A stretch of DNA of 64,000 nt from an uncultured Candidatus Saccharibacteria bacterium (GCA_964607805.1 CAZSLF010000001.1:12811-76810); one strand, 5' to 3'. Shown: positions 4,119 to 35,443, numbered from the stretch's first letter. Translations and numbers: made by a program. The notes: generated from the sequence alone by a model not told the origin.

Positions 4119-7100
4119 TTATCGCACTTTTGAGGTTTTTGGTTTTGAATTTGTCTTGACTACATCAAGGTTGTCAATATTGCTGTCTGAGTCATTGTCA
4201 ATATTATTTTCATCTTCACTTGGATTATTTGTTGCACCAGAGTTTGCGCCAATATTTTGGTTTCCACTAGCGTTGCCGTTGCCATGACTAATTAACTTTT
4301 TACCTTTCTTAACTTCGAAAATAAATTCAACTGGACTCTGAGATCCACCCTCTCGAGAGTAGCTAGCTCGAAGATCTGCAAATGTATTAACGCCAAATTC
4401 CATAGACTTGATAGGTGACTTAATTTTGCCAGAATTTTCGGCTGATGATTTGTCGCCTTTTCCATCGGAACCCTTACCCTCCTTTCCATTCTTCCCTTCC
4501 TTTCCGTTTTTCTTCACGCTAACAGAAACTGTCCCACCCTTAAGAACTCCTTCAGAAATTATGAGGGATGCCATCGGTGTCAAAATTTTGTTTTGAATCA
4601 AACGCTTGAGAGGACGTGCACCATAGTGAGGATCGTATCCTTCCTTCGCAAGATATGTAAGCACGTCTTCAGAAAGTTCAAGTGTAATTTCTTTTTCACT
4701 AAGTCTTGCTCGAACTTTTTGCAACTCAATATCAACAATATTTCTAATTGCTTCAGGACTTAGGATATCAAAGAGAACAATTTCATCGATTCGGTTCAAG
4801 AATTCAGGACGGAAATGATCTCGCAAAGCCTCCATAACTTTCTGCTTTGAGTTTTCATAGTTTTCTTTGTCGCGAGCGTTGCCATCTACACCCTTCAACT
4901 CATCTGCATCGGCGCCGACATTAGCATTGAAGCCAATTGATTGCATACGATCGATAAATTGTGCACCAATATTAGAAGTCATTATGATAATGGTGTTCTT
5001 GAAATTAATTGTTCGTCCCTTTGAATCTGTAAGACGACCGTTGTCCAAAACCTGAAGAAGGATATTGAAAATCTCCGGATGAGCTTTCTCAATTTCATCG
5101 AAAAGAATTACTGAATATGGTCTATGTTTTACAGTTTCAGTTAGAGATCCGCTGTCCTCATGGCCAACATATCCTGGTGGGGCACCAATTATCTTAGATA
5201 CTGCATGTTTTTCCATATACTCAGACATATCTACACGAATTAGTGCCTTCTCATCGTCGAACATGAATTTCGCAAGAGATTTTGTAAGCTCAGTTTTTCC
5301 AACTCCAGTTGGTCCAAGGAATATGAAAGATCCGATTGGTCTATTTGGATCGTTAATACCAGCACGTGATCGCTTAATTGTATCTGCAACTTTAGCAACT
5401 GCAGCATCTTGTCCAAGAATTGATTTCTTTAGATCTTCTTCAATTCGTGCCAACTTCTGAACCTCTTCTTCGAGCATCCGAGTAACTGGAATTCCAGTCC
5501 ATCGCGCAACAATTGTTGCAATATCATGCTCTGTAATTTCTTCTTTCAAAATTCTTCTTGAACTTTGTAGTTTTTTAAGTCTCTTTGTTTTGTTTTCCAA
5601 ATCTTTTTCAAGAGCAGGCAATTTTACATATCGAATTTCCGCAGCTTTTGATAAATCGGCATGTGCCTCCGCCCGATCTGCATCTAATCGCAAAGTCTCT
5701 AATTGCTTTTTGATATTTTTAATATCTGAAAGAGTTTCCTTTTCATTTATCCACTTAGCTTCTACTTCTGCGGTCTTCTGCTTAAGATCTGCAATTTGAG
5801 TCTCGATTTCTTTAATTCGAGTCTTTGTATTTTTATTTGTCTCAGACTCTTTCTTAAGCGCTTCACGCTCAATTTCAAGACGCATAACTTTTCGATGTAC
5901 ATCTTCAAGCTCTGGTGGTTTGTTTTCAAGTGCAATTTTAAGAGAAGATGCTGCTTCGTCGATCAAGTCCACTGCCTTATCTGGCAAAAATCTATCGCTA
6001 ATATATCGACTAGACAAAGAAACCGCTGCAATTATCGCATCGTCTGTAATTCGAACACCGTGATATAGCTCATATTTTTCTTTAAGTCCTCGCAAAATTG
6101 CTACAGCATCTTCAGTTGAAGGTTCTTGAACGTATACTGGTTGAAATCGTCGCTGTAGCGCTGGATCCTTTTCAATATGTTTCTGATATTCCTTTAGAGT
6201 TGTTGCACCAATTGCACGTAACTCGCCACGGGCTAACGCAGGCTTTAGCATATTTGAAGCATCGAGTGATCCTTCTGCAGCACCAGCACCTACAATTGTA
6301 TGAATTTCATCGATAAATAGAATAACTTTACCATCCGACTTCTCAATTTCTTTTAAAATATTCTTCAAACGCTCCTCAAATTCTCCACGATATTTAGTTC
6401 CAGCAATTAAAATTCCAAGATCGAGAGAAACAAGCTCTTTTTCTTTAAGAGATTCAGGAATATCACCCATTGCAATACGATTCGCCAATCCTTCTGCAAT
6501 TGCAGTCTTTCCAACACCTGCTTCACCAATTAATATTGGATTATTTTTAGTTCTTCGAGAAAGAATCTGAATTACACGATTAATTTCTGAATCACGACCG
6601 ATAACAGGATCTAATTTATTTTCACGAGCAAGAGCAGTAAGATTGCGAGTATATTTGACAATGGCCTTCATCTTTTTACTCCCCGTATTTTCAGCAGTTG
6701 GCTTTGCCGCTTTCAATTCAGAAATAGTTTCAGCAATTGCGCCCCGCTCCAATTTAAATTTTTGAGATAAAAGCTCACGCCCCGAGCTCGCAACGTCAAA
6801 GAATGCCAAGAACATATGTTCCACTGATACAAAATCATCTTTCAAAGTAGCCGCAACACGCGCCGATGTTTCAATAATCTGAGCAAGCTCAGGTGTAAGA
6901 TATAACTGGTATGAAGGTGACAAAGTCTGTCCGCCTTCACCTGTCTCAATAGCCTCCAAAACAGTGTCTGTGAGTAAAATAGTATCCACCTCAAGCTTAT
7001 CAAGCACAGAAAGCACCAAACTATCCTCCTGAACTAGCAAAGCAGTCAAAAGATGCAGAGGATTGACGTTGTTCTGTCCCCTTTCTATGGCTAATTCATG

Positions 7101-7154
7101 GGCTTTTTTAATCGCTTCTTTAGCTTTTGTCGTAAAATGGCTTAGTGGTGGCAT
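4119..7154 (-). CDS. clpB: ATP-dependent chaperone ClpB with a long low-complexity C-terminal extension
   Basis: Clp N-domain, NBD1 Walker A GEAGVGKT and Walker B ILFIDEIH, a long coiled-coil middle domain, NBD2 GPTGVGKT / [10 protein letters not shown], and sensor-2 GARPLKR. At 1011 aa it is about 150 aa longer than typical ClpB. Confidence 0.95.
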
Positions 7155-7816: not shown

Positions 7817-10039
7817 TTACTTATTACCAGAAGATTGTTCGAGCACGGCCTCACTCACCTTCTCCGCAATATTCCCTATATCCACCGTCGTAGTAAATCG
7901 TCCAAGTGAAATTCGAAGAGAACTCAACGCACAATTTGATCTTCCAAGAGCTTCGATAACATAAGAAGATGCATCTTCGTTCGTAGCGCGACAACTTGTA
8001 ACAGATGAAAGTTCAATTCCTAAAACATCGAGACGTAAAACTAGGAACTCTGCGTCAATTCCTGGGAAACAAATATTTAAATTATTAGGAAGTCTTTCTT
8101 CGAGAGTTCCATTTACCTTAATTCCTAAAACTTTATCTTGCAATTTACTCATAAGCATCTCAAGCAAAGTATCGCGGAACTCCAAAAGTTTTGCTGACTG
8201 ATCTTCCCTTTCGTTATGAGCTATATCGAGAGCATGCTTAAGACCAATAATTGCAGGGATATTTTCAGTTCCTGGCCGAAGACTACTTTCTTGATTGCCA
8301 CCTAGGAAAATTGGTGACAAATGAACATGTCGGCGTTTTACAAGCGCACCAACACCTCGTGGACCATAGACTTTTCCTCCATCAATAGTCATAAGATCAA
8401 TATTCAAAGTCATAATACGCATATCCTCATAAAGTGCTGCCTGACAAGCGTCTGTGTGGATATATGGATATCCAGTTCCCTCTCTTCCAAGACTTTTCTT
8501 AAAATGCCGCACTTCTCGCGCAATTTCTTTTAGCGGCTGAACGGTTCCAATTTCATTGTTCGCATAAATAATTGATATAAGAACAGTTTCTTCTCGCAAA
8601 ACTTTTTTAATATCTTTTGGATCTACTAGCCCATCTTCATTTACAGGAATAAAAGAAACATCTATACCTTTATTTATAAAATCAAGAGCGATTTCAATTA
8701 TAGAAGGATGTTCAATTGTAGAAATGATAAAGTGCGGACGAACTTTTTGTGGCTTATCGCCATTTTTCAATTTCTTTTCTAAAAGTTTATCACCTTCTGT
8801 CGTGCTACCTCTATCCACAAAACCTTTGAGAATCCCCTGAAAGACTAGATTATTTGTTTCAGTTCCTCCGGATGTGAAGAAAATTTCATTTTTATTTGCT
8901 CCGAAAAAAGCGGCCACTGACATGCGCGCATCCTCAAGAGCCTTTTTGGCCTGCACACCCTTCTTATATAGAGAAGATGGATTTGCCGGGAACTGATCCA
9001 TGGCCTCAAACATCACTTTTTTTACTCGAGGATCGATTGGAGTAAGTGAAGCATAGTCGGCGTATACGGGAGAGCTTAAGGGTTGGCCTGCAGTATTTGG
9101 TGCCAGCTGCGCTGTTGGAGTCGAAGTTTTAGTTGAAGGGAGAATGACAGAAGCTGGCGACACAGCTCCAGCAACTCTAGGAAAACTTTCCAAAATTTTT
9201 GGTTTTATGGCAGCGGCTGCAACGGCGGCTTCTGAAATTGCAGGCGGAACATCTTTGTCAAAATCCTCAGCAAACTTTTCTTCATCATGATGCAAATCCT
9301 GCAAATTTTTCTTGCGTCCTCGTCGAAAAGCTTCAAGTGCTGATTTAAAAATGTTTTTTGATTCTGTTGCTGGCGAGGGTTTTGGATCTTCTTTATGTTC
9401 GGGTAGCGCATTGTCAAATTCCTGATAATCAAATAAAACTGAATTTTCGTCTCTCTTTTCTTCATTTTCTAAATGAGACTCAGTCGCAATTAGAATCTCG
9501 TCTAACTTCTGAGCTAAATTTACTTTTTCTTCATCTTTTTCAGATTTCTCTGGAATTTCTGTCTCAATTTCCTTGACCTCCGCAATTTCTACTACACTTT
9601 CTTCAATTATTTTATTATGAATTTCGGTTTTTTCTGTTTTAGTTTGTTCTTCATTATCATCACCTACCTGAGCACTATTTTTAACACCTTTCAGTTTTTC
9701 TGAAAGTGAAGGTCGCCTATTGATATTCTTGTTTTCGCTTTTGTTTTCTCCGTCAAAACCTGTACTGGCGATCGCACCTTTCGAAAAACTTTTGCCAATA
9801 CCATTACTTAGACCATTACTCAAACCTTTACTAGTTTCAACAATTTTAGAATTTATTTGAGAAAATGAAGTTGTCAGAGAAGACTTAGCTTTTTCAGTTG
9901 CGCCTGTCACTTTCTTTTGAACTTTCTCCACAGAATTTCGAAAAGACTTAAAAGACTTCGATTCTTCCTTATCAATTGATTTTTTAAGTGCCCCAACAAT
10001 ATTTGAGGTCTTTTTAAGAAAATTTGAATCAAATTTCAT
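7817..10039 (-). CDS. Cysteine desulfurase (class V aminotransferase, IscS/NifS-like) with ~330-aa low-complexity N-terminal extension
   Basis: C-terminal ~400 aa carry the family pattern: YADYASLTPIDPRV, FTSGGTETNNLV, STIEHPSI, HTDACQA, GGNQESSLRPGTENIPAIIGL, and the active-site Cys region SSVTSCRA. Start taken at MKFDSNF (10039). The alternative upstream ATG at 10087 lies in an atypically GC-rich stretch. Confidence 0.85.
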   Translation of the reverse strand: MKFDSNFLKKTSNIVGALKKSIDKEESKSFKSFRNSVEKVQKKVTGATEKAKSSLTTSFSQINSKIVETSKGLSNGLSNGIGKSFSKGAIASTGFDGENKSENKNINRRPSLSEKLKGVKNSAQVGDDNEEQTKTEKTEIHNKIIEESVVEIAEVKEIETEIPEKSEKDEEKVNLAQKLDEILIATESHLENEEKRDENSVLFDYQEFDNALPEHKEDPKPSPATESKNIFKSALEAFRRGRKKNLQDLHHDEEKFAEDFDKDVPPAISEAAVAAAAIKPKILESFPRVAGAVSPASVILPSTKTSTPTAQLAPNTAGQPLSSPVYADYASLTPIDPRVKKVMFEAMDQFPANPSSLYKKGVQAKKALEDARMSVAAFFGANKNEIFFTSGGTETNNLVFQGILKGFVDRGSTTEGDKLLEKKLKNGDKPQKVRPHFIISTIEHPSIIEIALDFINKGIDVSFIPVNEDGLVDPKDIKKVLREETVLISIIYANNEIGTVQPLKEIAREVRHFKKSLGREGTGYPYIHTDACQAALYEDMRIMTLNIDLMTIDGGKVYGPRGVGALVKRRHVHLSPIFLGGNQESSLRPGTENIPAIIGLKHALDIAHNEREDQSAKLLEFRDTLLEMLMSKLQDKVLGIKVNGTLEERLPNNLNICFPGIDAEFLVLRLDVLGIELSSVTSCRATNEDASSYVIEALGRSNCALSSLRISLGRFTTTVDIGNIAEKVSEAVLEQSSGNK

Positions 10040-10150
10040 GTGGGTGTGGGGGTGGTCTTGCCGGCGCTTTGGGCGGGCCTCGGGCATAAATTAGTGCCTA
10101 GGCTATGGCGCCACTATACAAAAAAAAGAGCAATCTGTATACTTTGGAGC

Positions 10151-16329: not shown

Positions 16330-17487
16330 ATGTTCACATTCTTTCTCTCGATCGTTCTTATTTTTGTGTGCTTGATGTGTCTTGCATACCTCTTGGGAAT
16401 ATTCATTTTCATTCCGAAAAATCACATCGTATGCCTTGTTCTCAAGGATAATTTGGTTCAATACCAGTCGCTTAGTCGCGACAAGGATAAAATCCTTGAA
16501 GCAATTAAAAGGATTCCGGATACAGAGCCAAGAAAAGTATTGGCATTGAAAGATGCTAACGGCATTGTAACCAGAGACACTGATAGGTTTTGGGGGTTAT
16601 TTGTCAAATTTTTCAATTTGCATTTTACAACCTTAAACCCTTTAGTCACTCTCAAACAAATTACAATTGAAAAAACACACGTCAATACAGAATGGAAGGA
16701 AACCGATAAATTCAAAGATAAAATAATTCGTAACGGTGCTGAAAAAACCCGTTTTTTGAGAATAAGCTGGCCACGTGACGGTGGAAATGAAGGAGTCGAC
16801 CTCAAAGGAGGTGTCTCCATTAATTTGATATGGAATGTAAGCGAATACACTGTATGGGATTTAGATTATCTATTTTTTGTCTCGACAAACGTCAGCCAAA
16901 AATTAGATGAGCAAACACGTCAGGGTGTCGCGACATTCTACGCTAATATGAGCATAGTCGAATTTCAAGGTTCTGTAAGAAGCTCAAACGCTGCCAGTCC
17001 ACTAAATCAGTCTATGCGTGATCTTGATGATCTGGGAAATTACAAATCTGGCGCTGGTATCTACCATGTTGGACTTGTTATGACCGGAACCATCGGTATT
17101 GGCGATTACCAAATTGACCCCAAAAGCCAACCAGTTATCGATGCTCAGCTTGAAGAGGTTGCAAGTCAATCAGCCCTGAAGACAGCTGAAAATAAAGGTG
17201 AGGCCCAGAAAACCTTACTTATCAAGGCTGGCGAAGGTGAAGCTGAAGCAATTAAACTCAAAGGTAAGGAAACCGCAATTGCAGAAGGTCTTAAAACAGC
17301 CGAAATTGCAAAAGCGGAAGCAGAAGGAGCAAGACTGCTTGGAGAACAAGTGAGAGACAACCCTGAGCTTGCTGGTTTACTCAAGCGGCAAGCATTAAAA
17401 GATGTTGGAACTTTGGTGCTCAACGAGACACCAAATCCAACACCTACACCAATGATCATCAACCCGAACGACCCACCGAAAAAATGA
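16330..17487 (+). CDS. SPFH/Band-7 (flotillin-like) membrane protein
   Basis: N-terminal TM helix. C-terminal Ala/Glu-rich heptad region AENKGEAQKTLLIKAGEGEAEAIKLKGKETAIAEGLKTAEIAKAEAEGARLLGEQ resembles flotillin/YqiK tails. The core domain call is tentative. Confidence 0.55.
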   Translation: MFTFFLSIVLIFVCLMCLAYLLGIFIFIPKNHIVCLVLKDNLVQYQSLSRDKDKILEAIKRIPDTEPRKVLALKDANGIVTRDTDRFWGLFVKFFNLHFTTLNPLVTLKQITIEKTHVNTEWKETDKFKDKIIRNGAEKTRFLRISWPRDGGNEGVDLKGGVSINLIWNVSEYTVWDLDYLFFVSTNVSQKLDEQTRQGVATFYANMSIVEFQGSVRSSNAASPLNQSMRDLDDLGNYKSGAGIYHVGLVMTGTIGIGDYQIDPKSQPVIDAQLEEVASQSALKTAENKGEAQKTLLIKAGEGEAEAIKLKGKETAIAEGLKTAEIAKAEAEGARLLGEQVRDNPELAGLLKRQALKDVGTLVLNETPNPTPTPMIINPNDPPKK

Positions 17488-18806
17488 ACGACTACGTAAA
17501 CCCGATAGTACTAGCTCTGGCTGTAATCACGACGTTCCTTATCCTGTTCGTCATAATCAAATGGTTATGGAATAAGTTGTGGCGTAGAACCCCTACACCC
17601 GCAGCGGCTGCTGCAGCAGCTGCGGCTGCCGGAGGAACACCTCCACCAGCACATACGACCCACGCCTCATCGTTTAGCTTCACCCTTGATTGGGTTGGCT
17701 TTGCTAAAGCAGTGGTTCTCGTGCTTATCATAGGCACGCTTCTATACTTCGCTTACGGGCTCTACGGTCCGTTTAAGGAGTTGGCGGCGAGGTTTATGAC
17801 AAGCATAACCCCTAGCACGACAGTCATCGACTGGAGTAGCTGGGACTACACGCAGCTGAAGTTTTGGATTGTGGTTGCGATTACCCTAGTGGTGATCTTC
17901 CTCATTTTCAAACTCCTGCTCGCCACGGTTACAGCGTTTGGAAGACATGCACCAGCCACCTCGACTCCCACAAACTGGGATTCGATATTCCGAGGGGTTT
18001 TTGCCCTTGCGGTAGTTGTTTGTGCGTTTTTCCTCTTGCGCGGATGCAGTGGGCCGGCTACGCAGATGTTTAAAACATTGGCCGACAAAATATCGAGTGG
18101 ATTCAATTCAGATTCTGACTCCGGAAAATCTTCTGCATCGTCGAAAGGCGGGCAGTCAGAGGATCAGGAGATCATGAAAATGGGTAGGATCGCACGTGAG
18201 AAGGACATAAAACTCCTTCAACAGCGACTCGAGCACGTTTGGCATATTCCGTTGAAGGAAACTAACGAAATACTTGCCGTATCCGGCAATATTCCAGGGG
18301 AAGTCTTCTGGCGGAACATGACTCGGGTGTACAGCTTCAAGCGGTTGCCCGAGTGGAAGTGGAACACTCTTCCCTCAAGCATTGTGGAAATTCAGGAAAC
18401 ATACCCCCACCCACAAACTAATGCTCCCGTGGAATACACATACACCCTCCCAGTAAAGCTTTGCAAGGACAGACCTAGTCGCCTAATCCCAGTTCGGGGT
18501 TGGGATGACAGGATTGTTCCTGCAGATCCGACTGTGGATGGGAGTTACTTACAAATATCCGACAGGGATGGATCGGCGCCTGTTGAGATTTACTTCTCGG
18601 GTAAAACCGGGCGGTACTACGTGTACAACTACAGTGGGAGAGCTATCCGCCAAGACAAAGGCTGGGTACCCACGACGATCAACCAGTACGAGTTGATGCT
18701 TGCGCCAAACCATCCAAGTTCGGGCGAGGTAAGGTTTCTGATCCATAGGACACGTCACTCGATGTCTCCTAGCGATCCGGATCCTCTGCCTACTCGAATT
18801 GACTGA
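17484..18806 (+). CDS. Membrane protein with poly-Ala tract and unknown C-terminal domain
   Basis: Start overlaps the upstream stop (ATGA), implying translational coupling. A run of 10 Ala then GGTPPP, 4-5 TM helices, and a ~230-aa soluble C-terminal domain with no recognised motif. Confidence 0.7.
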   Translation: MNDYVNPIVLALAVITTFLILFVIIKWLWNKLWRRTPTPAAAAAAAAAAGGTPPPAHTTHASSFSFTLDWVGFAKAVVLVLIIGTLLYFAYGLYGPFKELAARFMTSITPSTTVIDWSSWDYTQLKFWIVVAITLVVIFLIFKLLLATVTAFGRHAPATSTPTNWDSIFRGVFALAVVVCAFFLLRGCSGPATQMFKTLADKISSGFNSDSDSGKSSASSKGGQSEDQEIMKMGRIAREKDIKLLQQRLEHVWHIPLKETNEILAVSGNIPGEVFWRNMTRVYSFKRLPEWKWNTLPSSIVEIQETYPHPQTNAPVEYTYTLPVKLCKDRPSRLIPVRGWDDRIVPADPTVDGSYLQISDRDGSAPVEIYFSGKTGRYYVYNYSGRAIRQDKGWVPTTINQYELMLAPNHPSSGEVRFLIHRTRHSMSPSDPDPLPTRID

Positions 18807-18861: not shown

Positions 18862-18890
18862 AAAGGCGCCCCGCTAGGGGCGCCTTTTTT
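18862..18890 (+). terminator. Rho-independent terminator
   Basis: aaaggcgcccc gcta ggggcgcctttttt. Confidence 0.85.
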
Positions 18891-19027: not shown

Positions 19028-19321
19028 TCAACGTTTAATCACTTGATTAAGATTGCTTTGGGTTGCTCCGTCGATTCCGAAAGTTCCGATTATGACATTT
19101 ATTATACCAAAAACCGAAACCATGATAAACATACCGAACAATCCCCAAATCATATGCTTACGCCCCGTTTCTCGCTCACCATCACTATCCGCCCCGCGAA
19201 CGTACGAGAATATTCCCCATAAAAATACAACAAGTGCAACGAGAAAGAGAAGTCTGATAATCGGATTAAGAATTATATCGTTTACTCTGTGTATAAATTG
19301 GATAATATTTGTATCGTTCAT
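19028..19321 (-). CDS. T4SS-pilin-like (TrbC/VirB2-like) small membrane protein, paralog 1
   Basis: 97 aa. Two hydrophobic helices around a charged loop: LFLVALVVFLWGIFSYVRGADSDGERETGRKHMIWGLFGMFIMVSVFGII. No signal peptide. Confidence 0.7.
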   Translation of the reverse strand: MNDTNIIQFIHRVNDIILNPIIRLLFLVALVVFLWGIFSYVRGADSDGERETGRKHMIWGLFGMFIMVSVFGIINVIIGTFGIDGATQSNLNQVIKR

Positions 19322-19352
19322 TGGGCGTGCTTTGAATGTGATTTGATACTGA

Positions 19353-19712
19353 TTACTGATTCAACCCTCCAATCGGTTGTGGCGGTTGAGGAGGCTTAAG
19401 ATCTGGGTTTAATGTCCTAACTAGTATATTGACCAGTCCCCAGACAGAAACCATTACAAAGAGAGCTATAAGTCCCCAAATAATATATCCTACTGCCTCT
19501 TTTCGCGCTGTTCCGTCCCCACCAGAAATTACATACTTTAATATTCCCCATAAAAATACGAGGAGAGTAAGTGTAATTACAAATGGTAACAATTGGTTTA
19601 TTAGTTTATTTGCTTGATCTAATAATCCAAAAAGTCCACTCTGACTTTGAGCATGCGCCAAAGCTGGCAATAAAGTGACTACAAACAATGATGCTATTGT
19701 CGCTTTTTTCAT
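19353..19712 (-). CDS. T4SS-pilin-like small membrane protein, paralog 2 (with signal peptide)
   Basis: 119 aa. Signal peptide ending ALAHAQ, then the LPFVITLTLLVFLWGILKYVISGGDGTARKEAVGYIIWGLIALFVMVSVWGLVN core and a Pro-rich tail. Confidence 0.75.
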   Translation of the reverse strand: MKKATIASLFVVTLLPALAHAQSQSGLFGLLDQANKLINQLLPFVITLTLLVFLWGILKYVISGGDGTARKEAVGYIIWGLIALFVMVSVWGLVNILVRTLNPDLKPPQPPQPIGGLNQ

Positions 19713-19723
19713 ATTATTTGTTC

Positions 19724-20086
19724 TTAATAAGTTCCTCCAGCTCTAGGCATCTGAGGTCCCGGAGGAGCAGCAACGTCTAGGTTGAAAGAACGAACCAAGA
19801 TATTTACCAATCCCCATACTGATACCATAACGAAGAGCGCAATAATACCCCAGATCATATAACCTTGAGCTTCTTTACGCGCTTCACCATCGGCACCAGA
19901 GATAACAAATTTGAATACTCCCCAAAGAAACACCAGTACCGTAAGGGCAATGATGAAAGGAATCACTTGATTAATCAATTGATTCGCTTGATTGAGAAGC
20001 GCAAAGATGCCACCAATATTTTGTGCATGAGCAATTGCTGGAAAGACTGAGAGAGCAAGTGCAGATACTGTTAACGCTTTTTTCAT
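19724..20086 (-). CDS. T4SS-pilin-like small membrane protein, paralog 3 (with signal peptide)
   Basis: 120 aa. Signal peptide ending AIAHAQ, with the same two-helix core as paralog 2. Confidence 0.75.
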   Translation of the reverse strand: MKKALTVSALALSVFPAIAHAQNIGGIFALLNQANQLINQVIPFIIALTVLVFLWGVFKFVISGADGEARKEAQGYMIWGIIALFVMVSVWGLVNILVRSFNLDVAAPPGPQMPRAGGTY

Positions 20087-20155
20087 TTTAAGTTGTTAAT
20101 TGTTTACGTAAACTTATAAGCGACCTGTTTGAAAAGTCACCCATATATTATACAA

Positions 20156-20446
20156 CTATTTAAAGCGAGGCACACCTGGACCCTGTGGAGCGCGCGATGC
20201 ATCAGTTCCAAATCCAATTGAGTATGAAAGGAAATTTACAAGTCCCCATACAGAAACCATTACAAAAAGTGCAACTACGCCAAAAGAAATAATTTGTATC
20301 CCCTGTTTTCTATCATCTTCACCACTAGATCTTACCAATCTAAAAACTCCAATTATAAAAAATAGTAAAGTTAGGGCAATTATAAATGGAATTAATCTAT
20401 TTATAAATTCTTTTATTAAATTTATTACTGCAGGAATATCTCTCAT
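20156..20446 (-). CDS. T4SS-pilin-like small membrane protein, paralog 4
   Basis: 96 aa, core LIPFIIALTLLFFIIGVFRLVRSSGEDDRKQGIQIISFGVVALFVMVSVWGLVN. No signal peptide. Confidence 0.7.
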   Translation of the reverse strand: MRDIPAVINLIKEFINRLIPFIIALTLLFFIIGVFRLVRSSGEDDRKQGIQIISFGVVALFVMVSVWGLVNFLSYSIGFGTDASRAPQGPGVPRFK

Positions 20447-20498
20447 TTTATTAAAATTATTTCATGATTTACACCCTAATAATTTGCAAAATTCGCAC

Positions 20499-20774
20499 CT
20501 ATCGAAGTTGTGGAATATATAATCCACCTCCACCGAAGAAAGTATTACTTAGAATTGCTACAAGTCCCCATACAGAAACCATTACAAAAAGTGCCACAAT
20601 TCCGAAAGTTATAATTTTAATAGCGTCTTTTCTAGAATCCTCACTATTACTTCGCACAAGCTGGAAAATACCCCATAAAAATACAATAAGTGTCAGAGAG
20701 ACAATTACAGGGACCAAACTTGCGATTATGCTGTATATTCTTCCCACCAATCCTTCAAATGTATTGATTTGCAT
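20499..20774 (-). CDS. T4SS-pilin-like small membrane protein, paralog 5
   Basis: 91 aa with the same core. It shares a 35-nt identical stretch with paralog 4 (20560-20594 versus 20238-20272). Confidence 0.7.
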   Translation of the reverse strand: MQINTFEGLVGRIYSIIASLVPVIVSLTLIVFLWGIFQLVRSNSEDSRKDAIKIITFGIVALFVMVSVWGLVAILSNTFFGGGGLYIPQLR

Positions 20775-20794
20775 ATATTTGTATTATAGCTCTA

Positions 20795-21343
20795 TTAACG
20801 CGATAAATCCCTTACTGTATTTGTAATAACCATTGAAATTACCTTTGCTCCTAGAAGGATTGCTGCACCGATAACTGTCCATGTTAATTGCTTATGTGCG
20901 GCTTGAATTTCAGAATCGTTGCCTCTAGCCATAACATATTTAAGACCAGCTAGAATAATCATAAAGACAATTACGATTGATCCGAGCATAATCAAAACAT
21001 CTAGAAGTTTATTCAAAAATCCTGCAAGTGTACCGTTGTTATTACCTAGTGGATTCTGAAGTCTTGCTGTACCTTGATTATTTGCCCCTGCCTGCGCTAA
21101 CAAAACACCTTCAATTGCACTGGCGCTGTCAGCACCAATATTCGTGCCTCCGCCCACACTCTCACTTTGAACACCTAAAATCTTGCCAACACTGGCACCC
21201 AATCCTGTTTGATTTACAAAATATGATCCACTTGGTGAAAATGCAAAATATGAAAGCACCAAACTAAGTCCAATTGCAAAACTAAGAACTGTAAAGAAGG
21301 ATTTTCTTTCTCGACCTTTTTTATTTTGAGATGGATTAGGCAT
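20795..21343 (-). CDS. TrbC/VirB2-like pilin, longer form, paralog 6
   Basis: 182 aa. N-terminal TM/signal anchor, a Gly/Asn/Ala-rich region, and a C-terminal two-helix module LLDVLIMLGSIVIVFMIILAGLKYVMARGNDSEIQAAHKQLTWTVIGAAILLGA. Confidence 0.65.
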   Translation of the reverse strand: MPNPSQNKKGRERKSFFTVLSFAIGLSLVLSYFAFSPSGSYFVNQTGLGASVGKILGVQSESVGGGTNIGADSASAIEGVLLAQAGANNQGTARLQNPLGNNNGTLAGFLNKLLDVLIMLGSIVIVFMIILAGLKYVMARGNDSEIQAAHKQLTWTVIGAAILLGAKVISMVITNTVRDLSR

Positions 21344-21384
21344 ATGATATTTATTGTTTGTATCTATTATATCTTATTAACCTT

Positions 21385-21867
21385 TTATTGTATAAATGTC
21401 CTAAACTCTGCACCAACACCCAAATTATCAAGAATAAAGTCAACAATTAACCATGCGCACAAAGTTATTACAAGACCAATCGCGGCTTTTGCCATAATTC
21501 CCTTTGCTTTTTCAATTTCTCCAGAATTTCCTTGATTCATCATCATCTTCCACCCTGCGACAACAAAAGAAACTGTGGCACCGAGCACCGCAAGATAAAT
21601 TGCGAATTGTAAAATCTCAGAACCAAGTGCTATTAAATCATTCCAACCACACTCTCTAGTGTTACAGTCGGCAGGTACTTTAAATCGTCCAAAATTTTGC
21701 GCATGTGCAAGCAGCGGCATACATAGCAGGAAAAGAGTTAGACCTATTTTTGCGCTAGCAGCACTTATTTTGCCTACTATTAATCCAATTTTAGTTACTG
21801 CTTTTTTAGCTTCTGCCTTGTCCGTTTTCTTTGAGAGATTCATTTTCATAATTTTCGCCATTTTCAT
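21385..21867 (-). CDS. TrbC/VirB2-like pilin, paralog 7
   Basis: ORF 21385..21942 trimmed to an internal Met so it does not overlap the upstream gene's stop at 21881. Signal peptide ending LLAHAQ. C-terminal two-helix module ILQFAIYLAVLGATVSFVVAGWKMMMNQGNSGEIEKAKGIMAKAAIGLVITLCAW. Confidence 0.65.
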   Translation of the reverse strand: MKMAKIMKMNLSKKTDKAEAKKAVTKIGLIVGKISAASAKIGLTLFLLCMPLLAHAQNFGRFKVPADCNTRECGWNDLIALGSEILQFAIYLAVLGATVSFVVAGWKMMMNQGNSGEIEKAKGIMAKAAIGLVITLCAWLIVDFILDNLGVGAEFRTFIQ

Positions 21868-21880
21868 AAAATTAAGACAA

Positions 21881-23248
21881 TTAAGACTTAGTTCCCTGCA
21901 ATAATAGATCCAATCTTTGCTTTGCAGTCGTGATTGCATCACTTGCAGAACTCAATCCTGTTGTTACTGATTCTATCATGTCCTGGAAAATCACACTTGA
22001 GTAAGCTGGATCTGGATCAAACCAAGTTTTTGACTGAATTGTTGCCTTGTAGAAAACCGAAAGGAATTTATCTGTCATAGGTACACTCAACAAATCTTTG
22101 CGAACTGGTGGCATCCTAGAAATATCTACCCATAATTTTTGTGATGGAGCTTCAGTTAGTTTTAGTATTACATCGAAGGCGGCTTGTGCGTCTTTAGGTC
22201 TTTTTACTATTGAAAATGCAGTAATCTTTCCATAAGTAACATTGTAAGATGCACTATTCTGTGGCACAGTCGCTACGTCAAAATCAAGATTCGGATTTTC
22301 AAGTCGAAGTCTTGCATATTCACTAGCATATCCAATATATATCGCTAAATCCCCTGCCAAGAAAGCCTGTTTTGAAGTCGGCATAGATCTACTCCATGTA
22401 TATAGAGGATCAGCAGGGTTTGAGAATGTAGTATAGAATCGCAAAACTGATTCGCCAGGTGAAGATTGCGATATGCCAGACTGAGACGAACCGGTTGTTT
22501 CAGAACCTCCAGACGACTGCGACGATTGATCTGTGCTTGGATTATCAATTACATTTCTAATTGTCTGCAACTTTTCATCGTATACAGTTACTGGATTTCC
22601 AGCTTGCATAAACATAGTTACAAGAATTTCTTTTGCATTTGTAACGTTTCGAGCTTCTCCTAGTGCAATTGCTGATCGAGTAATACCTTTCGTTTCGTTT
22701 ATATTTACAAGTTTGGGCACCATAGTCTCAAGTTCGCTCCACAATTTGGGCGGTTCAGCGATTCCTGCGGTAGATAGAAGCCGTCTATTGTAGTACATAA
22801 CAATCGGATCAGCTGTGAATGGCACCCCGAGCAACCCCTCAGGTGTCATAAAGTGATCAGCTGCGTTCAGATATGTATCTGAATATGATCTTTGGTCATA
22901 TGTAGTGTATGGAATAACCATTAGCTTTCCTTTCTGAGAATAAAGTAGGTCGTCAGATAGCAAAACAATATCAGGACCAGTTTCTTCCGCCAATGCATTT
23001 ACAAATTCCTCCTGAAATCGCTCAGGATTTTTTTGCACATAGGTTACGCTAACCTGAGGTTTTTCGGCATTTATAAGTCTAATCATTTCATTGAACTCGG
23101 GCGCAGGCACGGTTCCCCAAATAGTGGCTGTTGGAACTTTTTTAGCGTTCACGCCTCCTAGACCCGCAAAAACTATTACACCAGTGATTCCGAGCAGAAT
23201 AAATATTGCTATAACTACGAGTTGAAAAGTACTAGGTGATGATTTCAT
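21881..23248 (-). CDS. Extracellular solute-binding protein (ABC family-1 SBP-like), membrane-anchored
   Basis: 455 aa with an N-terminal TM anchor. Pattern GPDIVLLSDDLL...GLLGVPFTADPIVMYYNRRLLSTAGIAEPPKLWSEL is typical of sugar-type SBPs. No permease or ATPase partner is adjacent. Confidence 0.65.
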   Translation of the reverse strand: MKSSPSTFQLVVIAIFILLGITGVIVFAGLGGVNAKKVPTATIWGTVPAPEFNEMIRLINAEKPQVSVTYVQKNPERFQEEFVNALAEETGPDIVLLSDDLLYSQKGKLMVIPYTTYDQRSYSDTYLNAADHFMTPEGLLGVPFTADPIVMYYNRRLLSTAGIAEPPKLWSELETMVPKLVNINETKGITRSAIALGEARNVTNAKEILVTMFMQAGNPVTVYDEKLQTIRNVIDNPSTDQSSQSSGGSETTGSSQSGISQSSPGESVLRFYTTFSNPADPLYTWSRSMPTSKQAFLAGDLAIYIGYASEYARLRLENPNLDFDVATVPQNSASYNVTYGKITAFSIVKRPKDAQAAFDVILKLTEAPSQKLWVDISRMPPVRKDLLSVPMTDKFLSVFYKATIQSKTWFDPDPAYSSVIFQDMIESVTTGLSSASDAITTAKQRLDLLLQGTKS

Positions 23249-23322: not shown

Positions 23323-23865
23323 CTATATTGTAGCGTGTGGCAATTTAAAAAGAAACCCATAATGGTGTGAACCTGAATCCAGTCGTGATACAAATTCAAA
23401 TCCAGTGGCTTCAAATGCTTTCCTGACATTTTCATAATTAACAACTCTATCTTTATGCGGCCCAATTTGCTTAAAAGACTCAACCCAATCAATTACTGCC
23501 ACCATTCCGCTAGATTTCAGAACTCTTTTTGCTTCCTGTGCGATTAGAAAAATATCATCCACTTGAAAAAGGACATTTGAAACAATAACTCGATCAACTG
23601 AAGCTTTGAGGAGGCCCGAGCCTGCCGGAGCCTCAAGGTCTCCATGAATTATTTCAATATTTTTAAGCCCCCTATGTGCCGCCTCCGCTTTCAGCTTCGA
23701 AAGATGCTCCGGCTGAATATCAATTGCATAAATTTTACCCTTCGGGCCGACATGTTTTGCAAGAGCGAGTGAGTGAAATCCTACTCCACATCCAAAATCC
23801 GCAACTGTCATGCCCTCGGCAATATGCATTTGCTTTATATTTGATTCGGGATCAGAGAACTTCAT
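23323..23865 (-). CDS. Class I SAM-dependent methyltransferase
   Basis: Motif I VADFGCGVGFHS, motif II IYAIDIQ, post-I acidic residue. 180 aa. Confidence 0.8.
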   Translation of the reverse strand: MKFSDPESNIKQMHIAEGMTVADFGCGVGFHSLALAKHVGPKGKIYAIDIQPEHLSKLKAEAAHRGLKNIEIIHGDLEAPAGSGLLKASVDRVIVSNVLFQVDDIFLIAQEAKRVLKSSGMVAVIDWVESFKQIGPHKDRVVNYENVRKAFEATGFEFVSRLDSGSHHYGFLFKLPHATI

Positions 23866-23986
23866 AGTTTAATAATTTTGCGTGGCGCGGAATCCAATTG
23901 GGATTGCACACCAGGCTTTTAACTCCCACAATTATACATCAACATGAAGAATATATAAAATTCTATGTCACTACACTGCCACTAAA

Positions 23987-25768
23987 CTAAACTGTTTCAA
24001 AAGAATCCTTTTGTGCAGTAAACAACTCTTTGTACACCCCTTTCTTTTTTTCCATGAGTCTATCATGTGTATCGAACTCAATAATTTCACCATGTTCAAT
24101 AACCATAATTCGATCAGCGTTTTTAACTGTATTAAATCGATGAGAAATTAATATTACCGTCTTGTCATTTGGAAGATTTTCCAATTCTTCGAATATTTCC
24201 ATTTCTGCCACAGCATCTATCGAAGCCGTAGGCTCGTCGAGAATCCAAATCTGAGGATCACGGTAGAACAGGCGTGCCAGAGCAAGTTTTTGCCACTGAC
24301 CAACCGATGGCTCAACACCGTCTTCAAATTCCTTTCCTAAATATGAATTATATCCATCAGTCCATTCTTCAATAAAAGCATGAGCACCTGCTCTTTTTGC
24401 AGCCTTGACAACCCTTTCCATGTCAATCGGTTTACTTGTATCACCAACCGCAATCGCATCTTTTACAAGTATCTTATATTTGTCGTAATCTTGAGAAAGA
24501 TAACCCATTTTACTGAAATAAGTATCTTGATCTATCTCTTTCAGTTCGGTTCCACCTACAAATACAGAACCTTCACTAGGATCATAAAAACGCATAAGTA
24601 ATTTGGTAAGAGTGGTTTTTCCTGCACCATTTACACCAACAATTGCAATTTTTTCTCCTGCACTAATTTTAAAATTCAAATTTTTGAAAAGATACTTCTC
24701 TGTATCTGGATACTTAAAATTCACATCCTTAAATTCTATGTCGGGAGTTGCTTCAGGTAGTGAAATATGGCCATTTTTAAGGGCTTTATGAGTATCGAGA
24801 AACTTAAAGATATCCTTTACGAAAAGATTTTCTTCATTTAAATGACCTATGCTGGAGAAAAAATCCATAATACTAGACTGCATCCTAGTCATATTCATCA
24901 AAAGAAATGTAAATGTACCTATCGCTAAAGTCTTAGCAAGTACATCGTTCATAAAATATAGGATTACAAAAGTACTTGCTACATATGAAATGAGAATGGA
25001 AAAAACTTTCCCAGTCGTCTTATTACTCAGATTTTTATAAATTTCTAAATTAAAATCTGATGTTAATTGATTGATTATATTTCTGAAATATTTTTTAGTA
25101 CCTAAAACTTTCATCTCAATTAAAGCAGGTGTATTATCAAAATGCTTTTCAGCTTCATAATACTTCCTTTTTATAGATGCTTTTGCATCCCAAATACCCC
25201 ATGCTCTCTTTCCATATTTAAGTTCTAAGTATAATTCAGGAAAAAGCGCGATTATAAGAATTACCGCAATCCACCACTGGTATGATGCAAGGATAAATAT
25301 ACTCATAACCACTCTTATGATCTCTTTAATACTGCCGAAAATTGAATCTATGAATGCTAGACATTTCATAGAATTCCTTCTAGCCTTTTCCATAAGATTA
25401 TTAAACTTGGGATTCTCGTATGTCTGAATATCTACATCCGCCTTCTTTTCAGAAATAATATTTTCAACATACTGACCGTAGAAAATATAAAATGCATTCC
25501 ACTTTTTTCGTCTATAGAGTTGCTCTAAGGATATTACAAGTGGAATTCCTAAGTACGCGACCACAATATAAATCAAATCAGGATCAGTAATTGAAGTAAA
25601 ATTACCCTCAACTATTTTATTAATAAATTGGGCAGAGTACCAAGTGGCTAAAATCGGAAGTGCAGAGGCAACAATAGAAAATCCAATTTCAATAAACAAA
25701 TATGATCTGTCCATTTTCCAGACCAGCTTTAGTGATCTGATAATATTTTTTATCATATCGTTTTTCAT
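23987..25768 (-). CDS. ABC exporter, fused permease/ATPase (MsbA/type-1 exporter-like)
   Basis: N-terminal 6-TM domain, Walker A GVNGAGKTTL, signature SVGQWQKLALAR, Walker B ILDEPTASID, H-loop SHR. Confidence 0.9.
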   Translation of the reverse strand: MKNDMIKNIIRSLKLVWKMDRSYLFIEIGFSIVASALPILATWYSAQFINKIVEGNFTSITDPDLIYIVVAYLGIPLVISLEQLYRRKKWNAFYIFYGQYVENIISEKKADVDIQTYENPKFNNLMEKARRNSMKCLAFIDSIFGSIKEIIRVVMSIFILASYQWWIAVILIIALFPELYLELKYGKRAWGIWDAKASIKRKYYEAEKHFDNTPALIEMKVLGTKKYFRNIINQLTSDFNLEIYKNLSNKTTGKVFSILISYVASTFVILYFMNDVLAKTLAIGTFTFLLMNMTRMQSSIMDFFSSIGHLNEENLFVKDIFKFLDTHKALKNGHISLPEATPDIEFKDVNFKYPDTEKYLFKNLNFKISAGEKIAIVGVNGAGKTTLTKLLMRFYDPSEGSVFVGGTELKEIDQDTYFSKMGYLSQDYDKYKILVKDAIAVGDTSKPIDMERVVKAAKRAGAHAFIEEWTDGYNSYLGKEFEDGVEPSVGQWQKLALARLFYRDPQIWILDEPTASIDAVAEMEIFEELENLPNDKTVILISHRFNTVKNADRIMVIEHGEIIEFDTHDRLMEKKKGVYKELFTAQKDSFETV

Positions 25769-34765: not shown

Positions 34766-35443
34766 ATGCAAGAACCCTCGGATAAACCTATAAATAAGCC
34801 TAAAAAAGATCATTTTTGGAGAACAATATCTATTTTCGTCTTCTTTGTAGCCATATTACGACTTTTCGTAATGGACCCTTTCCTCGTCCATGGCAGCTCT
34901 ATGGACCCCACTTTCGATGAAGGAAATTATGTAATTGTGGACAAGTTCACGTACAAAATATCCGATCCAAAACGTGGAGATGTAATTGTATTCGATGCTC
35001 CGACTGATGATAATCGATATTTTATCAAGCGAGTAATCGGACTTCCTGGCGAAAGAATTGTTGTCGACGGATCCATTGTCCAAATATTTAATACTGAATA
35101 TCCAAATGGTTTTGTGATTAATGAACCATATGTTGTGCACGAAAGCGAAAGAAAAGCGCAAGTCACTCTAAAGCCCGATGAATATTTTGTTATGGGTGAT
35201 AATCGTGAAGTGAGTTCTGATTCTAGAATCTGGGGACCGCTTAGCCGAGAAGCAATTACTGGAAGAGCCCTGGTCAGATTGCTACCAGTTCAAAATATAT
35301 CCGTTTTTCCTGGAAATATAAGCCATTTTCCAACAAAAATATATCCAGGAGACAATCCAGCCGATATGCGAAAGGAAAATACGTCCACCCAAGCCCCACT
35401 ACCATCGACCGACTCAACTTTAGAACCAAAAAAGACACTCTAG
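34766..35443 (+). CDS. lepB: Signal peptidase I
   Basis: Catalytic Ser box GSSMDPTF, Lys box KRVIGLPGE, GDNREVSSDSR, and an N-terminal TM anchor. Confidence 0.92.
   Translation: MQEPSDKPINKPKKDHFWRTISIFVFFVAILRLFVMDPFLVHGSSMDPTFDEGNYVIVDKFTYKISDPKRGDVIVFDAPTDDNRYFIKRVIGLPGERIVVDGSIVQIFNTEYPNGFVINEPYVVHESERKAQVTLKPDEYFVMGDNREVSSDSRIWGPLSREAITGRALVRLLPVQNISVFPGNISHFPTKIYPGDNPADMRKENTSTQAPLPSTDSTLEPKKTL

Follow-up and report, generated by a model that had tools for sequence, protein, structure and literature searches.

What purpose does a tandem set of pilin-like genes serve where no machine to assemble a pilus is encoded nearby? The question is posed by a window of 64 kb (the whole stretch of DNA that was analysed, on which all positions below are counted), chromosomal DNA of a Paceibacteria (Parcubacteria) bacterium, in which seven consecutive open reading frames (ORFs), all on the minus strand, occupy positions 19028-21867. 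Judged from their sequences, the seven genes belong to the VirB2/TrbC-like pilin superfamily, as a first-pass annotation of this DNA had proposed. Considering this homology together with the precedent of a six-gene array in Southlakia epibionticum, the array most likely represents non-redundant subunits of a pilus or conduit that is assembled by a type IV secretion system (T4SS) encoded elsewhere, a reading to which we would give somewhat better than an even chance.

The genes, here called p1 to p7 with p7 transcribed first, fall into four subfamilies, A to D. The array opens with the A-type p7 (21385-21867; 160 amino acids; PF18895 score 40.7 bits, E 2.5e-10), its length being counted from the ATG at 21867, as the ORF itself opens at a GTG at 21942, from where it would overlap the upstream gene. 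It is followed by the B-type p6 (20795-21343; 182 amino acids; 35.9 bits), by four C-type genes, p5 (20499-20774; 91 amino acids; 24.7 bits), p4 (20156-20446; 96 amino acids; 27.6 bits), p3 (19724-20086; 120 amino acids; 34.6 bits) and p2 (19353-19712; 119 amino acids; 34.3 bits), and finally by the D-type p1 (19028-19321; 97 amino acids; 31.6 bits). Spacing between the array genes is 11-69 nucleotides (nt). Hydropathy analysis assigned two hydrophobic helices with a charged loop between them to all seven proteins; p1, p4 and p5 consist of two long hydrophobic segments and begin at helix 1, while an additional segment at the N-terminus, a signal or an anchor, is present in p2, p3, p6 and p7. 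For p2, p3 and p7 the signal peptide closes with AHA, with Gln as the next residue (AIAHA before Gln in p3, LLAHAQ in p7). In p6 an N-terminal membrane anchor or signal, with a possible AQA site beside it, is succeeded by a Gly/Ser-rich linker, a conserved NP(L/I) motif and then the hairpin, while in p7 a Cys...Cys-G-W motif (residues PADCNTRECGW) lies between the signal peptide and the two-helix hairpin. Thus, the tandem ORFs, the module of helix, charged loop and helix in all seven, and the distribution of cleavable-type signal peptides (on p2, p3 and p7, with p1, p4 and p5 starting at the first helix) are as the first-pass annotation had described them.

Family membership was assessed with profile searches. 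All seven proteins match PF18895 (T4SS_pilin) at E 2.5e-10 to 2.6e-5, six of them above the gathering cut-off of 26.6 bits, with p5 slightly below it despite being homologous to p2-p4 at 42-52% identity. On the TrbC/VirB2 model PF04956 (cut-off 27.9 bits), p6 scored 26.6 bits (E 7.2e-6) and p2 15.5 bits, with no match for the others. The comparison with Pfam models that had been suggested beforehand hence turned out positive for PF18895, but left every window protein under the PF04956 cut-off. Orthologues of p6 go further: all 65 match PF18895, and 44 of the 65 also match PF04956 at E<=0.001 (best 1.9e-9), pointing to p6 as the most TrbC/VirB2-like member of the array. Together, the PF18895 and TrbC matches uphold the superfamily assignment. 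The NCBIfam model NF045849 was likewise matched by all seven (E 6e-9 to 2e-3), every score lying under the equivalog cut-off (35.4 at best, against 40), and the window proteins are therefore relatives rather than members of that family; the D-type orthologues of p1 match it in 61 of 61 cases, with a best E of 2.8e-11. By hhalign, the four subfamilies are homologous to each other (probability 98-99.9%), and a search of 1.84 billion representative proteins returned 51,493 that match the family profile at E<=0.001. Some polypeptides contain the hairpin module fused in tandem: three copies in L050:8525-9589 (354 amino acids), two in P0115, further cases in the position-3 genes of L040, L041 and L045, and 5, 9 and as many as 15 module matches in P0298, P0284 and P0379, respectively.

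We then asked how the array is kept among relatives. Searching databases with p3 yielded 704 homologues, essentially all PF18895, those with names originating from metagenome-assembled genomes (MAGs) of Paceibacterota, Parcubacteria or Taylorbacteria. A scan of one genome per species recovered 504 loci that encode a relative, the best 80 of which were taken with 10-kb flanks; all statements below on about 80 species rest on these. Nearly every one of them holds 5 or 6 tandem pilin-like genes (range 5-7), and seven occur solely in the window and in its nearest relative, GCA_034680565.1. Best-hit positions and a cross-species score matrix agree on a fixed order of subfamilies, namely A (p7), B (p6), C in 2-4 copies (p5, p4, p3, p2) and D (p1), with 5-6 genes in this order in about 65 species, the matrix being diagonal-dominant at positions 1, 2, 5 and 6 and the best matches of p7 falling at array position 1. 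The seventh gene stems from a lineage-specific duplication, since p2 and p3 (64% identity) both map to a single orthologue slot in relatives; GCA_034680565.1 shares the duplication. With seven adjacent ORFs matching one Pfam model and the array kept in about 80 species, its existence is far beyond chance.

Sequence conservation follows position. Orthologues of p3, the best conserved member, are 60-88% identical between species, the Pro-rich tail included, and paralogues within the window share 17-64%. Median identities to the best counterparts amount to 34-50% for the seven pilin-like proteins, compared to 38% for the neighbouring solute-binding protein, 45% for the methyltransferase and 69% for GyrA. 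The paralogues have helix 2 in common and differ in their N-terminal regions and C-terminal tails, the tails being retained within orthologue groups, as exemplified by LDNTAPPAPGLP, IPQL(K/R) and APQGPGVPRFK; the last of these is the tail of p4, kept in close relatives and found again in L005 and L025, and the p5 tail, FFGGGGLYIPQLR, is kept in its orthologues too. The Cys pair followed by (G)W is present in the A-type protein of all relatives inspected (L003, L005, L006, L008, L013, L017, L025, L050 and L058). Among D-type orthologues 61 of 66 possess two hydrophobic segments only and no signal peptide, and orthologues of p5 have a signal peptide in L003, L005, L006 and L008 and none in L025. 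That orthologues are better conserved than paralogues argues, at the level of sequence comparison, against antigenic variation. As a separate observation, the genome with the L025 array also harbours, in the region L031:7339-9390, a solitary extra C-type pilin gene (131 amino acids, with signal peptide), which is placed directly 3' of a gene for a 521-residue, repeat-rich, C-terminally anchored surface protein with a PKD domain.

Neighbouring C-type copies have exchanged short tracts. In p4, positions 20237-20272 (minus strand) are identical over 36 nt to positions 20559-20594 (minus strand) in p5 and encode ALFVMVSVWGLV in helix 2, one base longer than the 35-nt identity noticed initially. 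At informative identical residues the codons of p4 and p5 agree in 7 of 31 cases outside the tract, and in 10 of 10 within it. To place this in a wider context, C-type pairs sharing the same 12-residue motif were compared across species. Complete identity over the 36 nt was found for 8 of 27 within-array pairs (13 of 27 being identical at 34 or more positions), as opposed to none of 2,886 between-species pairs, of which only 0.3% attain 34 identical positions, with a mean of 28.6. Because of this contrast we regard the tract as a recurrent signature of short conversion between adjacent C-type copies; the comparison substantiates the conversion proposed at first for p4 and p5, and, as read from these sequences, indicates a real and recurrent process. 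Considering that the tract falls within the part of helix 2 that is conserved best, the conversion keeps the cores alike and spreads no variation.

The array does not stand alone, but forms the distal part of an operon. Upstream of p7, separated by 13 nt when its ATG at 21867 is taken as the start, lies a gene for a 455-residue protein of solute-binding-protein fold with an N-terminal transmembrane helix (21881-23248, minus strand; SBP_bac_8, SBP_bac_1). It is preceded by the conserved first operon gene, for a class I S-adenosylmethionine-dependent methyltransferase of 180 amino acids (23323-23865, minus strand; Methyltransf_31/25/11). Spacing across the whole operon is 11-74 nt. In relatives, the solute-binding gene ends at most 200 nt from the first pilin gene in 61 of the 63 loci with sufficient upstream sequence (median gap 2 nt), and the methyltransferase gene is directly 5' of it in 55 of 58 loci, overlapping by 4 nt in 8. 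Four contexts for which Pfam labels had been precomputed, including one labelled as Wolfebacteria, share this layout. Orthologues of the solute-binding protein were seen solely in this operon context (three contexts looked up from homologues of it or of a pilin, in addition to the best 80 of 504 loci). These two proteins are thus conserved, tightly coupled operon partners, and translational coupling links the pilin set to a methyltransferase and a protein of sugar-binding type. The common site in relatives comprises, in order, the gene for ribosomal protein S1 (opposite strand), a gene for a metallo-beta-lactamase-fold protein, gyrA, the methyltransferase gene, the solute-binding gene and the pilin genes, beyond which lie those for translation initiation factor IF-2 (opposite strand), a class-V aminotransferase and ClpB.

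One neighbour departs from this pattern. The window has a gene for an ATP-binding cassette (ABC) exporter, a fused permease and ATPase resembling MsbA/HlyB (23987-25768, minus strand; ABC_tran), between the methyltransferase gene and gyrA, the latter likewise on the strand of the array. Among about 60 syntenic loci it is found in the window and L025 only, and its absence from the nearest relative (L085) identifies it as a lineage-specific, recent insertion. It is an exporter-type half transporter and, as it is not conserved among relatives, was rejected as a probable non-component of the system. Hence, the three upstream genes on the same strand had been recognised correctly from the start, with the amendment that the solute-binding protein and the methyltransferase are conserved partners rather than incidental neighbours, and the exporter an insertion. 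No ABC permease or ATPase was detected within the operon in 61 species, so that the gene set of an importer is not present and the solute-binding protein needs another partner.

As to the limits of the transcription unit, a perfect GC-rich hairpin in the convergent intergenic region past p1 (18862-18887; 11-bp stem with 8 GC pairs, T-run on the plus strand) is likely the end of the operon, and a terminator scan found nothing convincing inside the array. The gap upstream of the methyltransferase gene contains a promoter-like site, TTTATA and TATAAT separated by 17 nt (23931-23959, minus strand), which is a weak candidate for the operon promoter. Promoter-like matches were no commoner than in shuffled sequence, and promoters of individual genes can for this reason be neither claimed nor excluded.

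Structure predictions were exploited to shed light on the architecture of the proteins. The AlphaFold2 model of p3 (61 sequences) consists of a signal helix, a hairpin of helices 24-62 and 67-100 with a predicted local distance difference test (pLDDT) score of 83-93, and a disordered tail. For the solute-binding protein (pLDDT 91.5), AlphaFold2 returned an N-terminal membrane helix (residues 7-30) and a complete MalE/UgpB-type fold, related in Foldseek at E of about 1e-22 to binding proteins for sucrose, maltotriose, maltodextrin and glycerophosphodiesters (UgpB). The Cys pair of the A-type protein suggests a disulfide-bonded loop outside the membrane, as would fit a topology with the N-terminus out. 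Head-to-tail cyclisation as in VirB2/TrbC was also considered, and rejected: the C-termini are not conserved, and there is no dedicated TraF-like peptidase nearby.

Is a secretion machine present at all? Within the window, Pfam models for the VirB4, VirD4, VirB6, PrgI, TraG and related families matched no ORF of at least 110 amino acids, in line with the statement of the first-pass annotation that VirB4, VirD4 and VirB6 are missing here. Its companion statement, that the window lacks a peptidase, is inexact, since a type I signal peptidase gene (Pfam S26) is located at 34766-35443 on the plus strand, 13 kb from the array. This gene probably encodes the housekeeping LepB and, as far as its sequence tells, is the likely enzyme for the AHA sites before Gln. 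RP4 TraF, which matures TrbC, is in the same peptidase family as the S26 signal peptidase. Elsewhere in the phylum the machinery is widespread: in the portions of a recent survey used here, VirB4 is reported for 2,417 of 3,035 Patescibacteria genomes, and VirB2-like pilins for 1,948 VirB4-positive genomes, near virB4 in 1,135 (Quinonero-Coronel et al. 2025, Microb Genom, PMC12102498). In the part of its Table S1 that was consulted, most Paceibacteria are VirB4-positive, including the Yonathbacteria genome that yielded locus L071 (PMC12102498).

Against this background, a T4SS-assembled structure would work as follows. The proteins would insert into the cytoplasmic membrane such that the two termini face outwards and the charged loop faces inwards, a topology that we infer because of the signal peptides of the type Ala-x-Ala before Gln, the extracytoplasmic Cys pair of the A-type protein and the loops containing Arg and Lys. 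Members with a signal peptide would be cleaved by type I signal peptidase. From the resulting membrane pool subunits would be drawn, as proposed for the six-gene Southlakia epibionticum array, and a VirB4/VirB6-type machine from elsewhere in the genome would build the pilus, or a wall-spanning conduit, at host contact. The four subfamilies would be non-redundant parts. Most of the structure would probably consist of C, and A, B and D would probably contribute minor subunits or those for initiation, the tip or the base. The linked solute-binding protein is probably a ligand or host-glycan binder at the structure. The Southlakia precedent lends weight to such a scheme: genes for VirB4, PrgI and VirB6-like proteins adjoin a set of six PF18895 genes (SEML1_0014-0019), all of which score essential in transposon sequencing (Wang et al. 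2023, Cell, PMC10633639; reviewed in PMC12857230), a result that fits the non-redundant, fixed set seen in the window. In two methanogen-parasitising Paceibacteria, T4SS pilins are moreover among those signal-peptide genes that are expressed at the highest levels (PMC10936435).

Several observations weigh against this scheme. With the 64-kb window being the part of this genome that was read, a T4SS in the bacterium is inferred rather than seen. The 10-kb flanks of the best 80 of 504 loci contain no unaccounted ORF of at least 450 amino acids with a Walker A motif, so that in about 80 species a VirB4- or VirD4-like ATPase is missing within 10 kb of the array; a VirB4-like ATPase was absent from the four Pfam-annotated contexts as well. 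We know of no counterpart among T4SSs to the coupling with a solute-binding protein. The direct link to solved or classical pilins is faint: Foldseek of the p3 model against the PDB gave nothing significant, a null result that the simplicity of the fold leads one to expect, sequence searches with the C-type profile and with p6 retrieved no T4SS pilin among solved structures, and hhalign of the A-type profile with Agrobacterium VirB2 was weak (P 0.008 over 62 columns, probability 5%; the VirB2 sequence used was a 100% match to annotated virB2). Essentiality of the individual Southlakia genes could also be due in part to polar effects in the operon. Furthermore, a pilus has so far been seen for no Patescibacteria T4SS (PMC12857230), and in the part of Table S1 at hand VirB4 is undetected in 9 of 23 Taylorbacteria MAGs, four of them larger than 0.9 Mb (PMC12102498); the pilin operon, in turn, looks universal in the related genomes examined, as against 14 of these 23 MAGs with VirB4.

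Several of these points could also be accommodated by a self-contained envelope complex that operates without any T4SS, in which the 5-7 hairpin proteins form a ring or channel in the membrane, on the plan of a two-helix-hairpin ring, and cooperate with the anchored solute-binding protein, for instance in unconventional uptake or sensing of host sugars or glycerophosphodiesters, with the methyltransferase modifying a component. The adjacency of the solute-binding gene to the first pilin gene (61 of 63 species, median 2 nt) and of the methyltransferase gene to it (55 of 58), the restriction of the solute-binding orthologues to this operon in the loci inspected, the protein's need for a partner other than an ABC permease or ATPase, and the lack of a VirB4-like ATPase within 10 kb in about 80 species all speak for it. 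So do the frequent fusions of 2 to 15 modules in one chain, which would suit a fixed lateral assembly, the missing signal peptides of three of the seven proteins and of nearly all D-type orthologues, and the Taylorbacteria MAGs that, in the portion of the survey used, have no detected VirB4 (PMC12102498). Homology, however, leads to T4SS pilins and to a conjugal-transfer family of integrative and conjugative elements (ICEs), the sole experimentally studied homologous array, that of Southlakia, lies within a T4SS locus and is, like that locus, essential, and gene adjacency is no proof of physical interaction. VirB4 is present in most Patescibacteria according to the same portion of the survey (PMC12102498), and in Anaplasma the T4SS genes are known to be split, with virB2 clusters located away from other vir genes (PMC3556328). 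On balance we consider an envelope complex of this kind unlikely, albeit worth keeping in view, as is the non-pilus membrane role that the first-pass annotation gave as its alternative. The most specific version of the envelope complex, that the methyltransferase, solute-binding and hairpin genes make up a VirB4-independent envelope machine across the class Paceibacteria, a hetero-oligomeric ring or short tube of A-D subunits with a MalE-like protein that takes up or senses host glycans or lipid head groups, appears doubtful to a similar, if anything slightly greater, degree. The module fusions hint at fixed lateral packing, and, by analogy, the presence of 5-6 different subunits is reminiscent of solved T4SS pili with their five-fold layers. 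If true, such an operon would represent a novel type of conduit, linked to a solute-binding protein, among ultra-small episymbionts.

Two further explanations bear on the nature of the genes themselves. The first-pass annotation had suggested diversification for antigenic or host-range variation, as does PMC12102498 for Patescibacteria arrays; the genes would then serve as a reservoir of different surface subunits, to be alternately expressed or recombined. Indeed, the paralogues of the array have diverged from one another (17-64% identity), their ends differ around a common helix 2 in a manner that resembles the hypervariable ends of Anaplasma VirB2 paralogues, gene conversion takes place, and the number of C-type copies ranges from 2 to 4. 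However, the paralogues are old, with an orthologue of each conserved in its set place in about 80 species, in arrays of only 5-7 genes, tails are constant inside orthologue groups, and the median identities (34-50%) are similar to those of the neighbours (38% and 45%). Conversion homogenises the invariant helix-2 core rather than diversifying the copies, the genes are in one tightly packed operon with no internal terminators, and all six Southlakia genes are individually essential, which is at odds with interchangeable variants. A variation store is accordingly an improbable description of this locus. Generic small two-helix membrane proteins under a misleading Pfam name, unrelated to secretion pilins, would be congruent with the lack of a significant sequence or fold match to solved T4SS pilins, with the lack of any tblastn match to the p6 pilin domain in 72,556 plasmids, and with the ease with which helical hairpins are matched by composition. 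Such a coincidence is nevertheless hard to reconcile with the independent TrbC/VirB2 model being matched by 44 of 65 B-type orthologues down to E 1.9e-9, with all 61 D-type orthologues matching a Mycoplasma ICE conjugal-transfer family, and with PF18895 genes lying within the Southlakia T4SS locus, and we deem it very improbable. Aggregated, homology and precedent keep a T4SS-assembled pilus or conduit as the reading that we favour.

The remainder of the window is an ordinary small-genome chromosome, with genes for ClpB, IF-2, GyrA, FtsA, FtsZ, TsaD, aminoacyl-tRNA synthetases and ribosomal protein S1; Rfam returned tRNAs only (eight). Downstream of the array, where relatives commonly have a convergent SPFH/Band_7 gene and where the region varies between species, two convergent genes are found at 16330-18806 (plus strand). 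The nearer encodes a 440-residue membrane protein with a poly-Ala/Pro stretch, and the next a protein of 385 amino acids without a Pfam match, possibly SPFH-like given its charged, SPFH-like C-terminal coiled coil. The class-V aminotransferase (cysteine-desulfurase-like) ORF at 7817-10087 (minus strand) has 756 amino acids, of which only residues 428-737 match the family, compared to about 400-590 residues in relatives, and ClpB (4119-7154, minus strand) has 1011 residues compared to about 900. Two ORFs have no Pfam or NCBIfam match: one at 60469-62958 (minus strand), whose 829-residue product is Lys/Pro-rich, is internally duplicated (IHFD.IENGK.PKVDKDKA) and resembles a coiled coil over its long C-terminal half, and one at 44227-46149 (plus strand), encoding 640 amino acids with a signal peptide.

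How does the array compare to known systems? The closest experimentally studied case is the Southlakia ML1 array, likewise composed of tandem divergent PF18895 genes (some also PF04956) on a Patescibacteria chromosome, six in number and of mixed lengths (about 100-185 amino acids). That array, however, adjoins VirB4, PrgI and VirB6-like genes, whereas the one described here is at the gyrA site with no T4SS gene within 10 kb; moreover, Southlakia belongs to the class Saccharimonadia, while the present array is from Paceibacteria. The Patescibacteria T4SS and pilin array are essential in the one genetically manipulable species. In the very large class Paceibacteria, as seen here, the pilin set comprises four subfamilies in a fixed order, is kept at a single place in the chromosome and is separated from the ATPase genes.

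Classical TrbC/VirB2 proteins (Agrobacterium VirB2, RP4 TrbC) are similarly small, with a long signal peptide cut at Ala-x-Ala before Gln (AAA before Gln in VirB2, AHA in the window), two hydrophobic helices and a short charged loop, and B-type orthologues reach the TrbC model. The window array differs in having several distinct paralogues instead of one major pilin, some without signal peptide, in its sub-cut-off PF04956 scores, in its monoderm host, in that the genes are not with VirB3-B11, and in that nothing indicates cyclisation. In Anaplasma phagocytophilum the vir genes are in three main clusters and the virB2 paralogues in tandem, with a copy number of 8-15 (PMC3556328). There too, a conserved two-helix core is flanked by differences near the N-terminus (before a Cys) and the C-terminus, and most other vir genes are apart from the virB2 cluster, although this cluster, unlike the array in the window, still adjoins a virB4 paralogue. 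Copy number and sequence are strain-variable in Anaplasma and the paralogues are expressed in a host-specific manner, whereas here number, order and sequence are kept across species. Comparable pilin paralogues are the trwL copies of Bartonella (as cited in the passages used of PMC12102498), and the hypervariable copy number and sequence of the Anaplasma virB2 and Bartonella trwL arrays are not encountered in this array type.

The Mbov_0395 family (NF045849), with its two-helix model of 80 residues, is also from a monoderm or wall-less lineage with conjugation of the MPF-FATA type, its protein being encoded by a single gene inside a Mycoplasma ICE rather than by an array. The D-type match to this model may bear on the origin of the Patescibacteria pilins. 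MPF-FATA systems are described as having no VirB2-like pilins in the survey passages that were consulted (PMC12102498).

The same passages report 441 VirB2-like arrays of 2-11 genes in 383 Patescibacteria assemblies, with a mean within-array identity of about 25%, and suggest that they serve adaptation to hosts (Quinonero-Coronel et al. 2025). The seven-gene array fits well among these tandem PF18895/PF04956 genes, which are often away from virB4, and what had first been presented as unusual is in this respect already published for the phylum. No fixed subfamily order, no synteny with gyrA, methyltransferase and solute-binding genes and no gene conversion are described in those passages, and our search of open-access papers and preprints did not find the fixed A-B-C-D order, the synteny across about 80 species, the conversion signature or the link between D-type proteins and the Mycoplasma ICE. 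The locus speaks against variation devices as the current default interpretation of such arrays. The array is, in sum, a further example of a published phenomenon, to which it adds a fixed subfamily order, an operon at the gyrA site, a signature of gene conversion and the D-type link.

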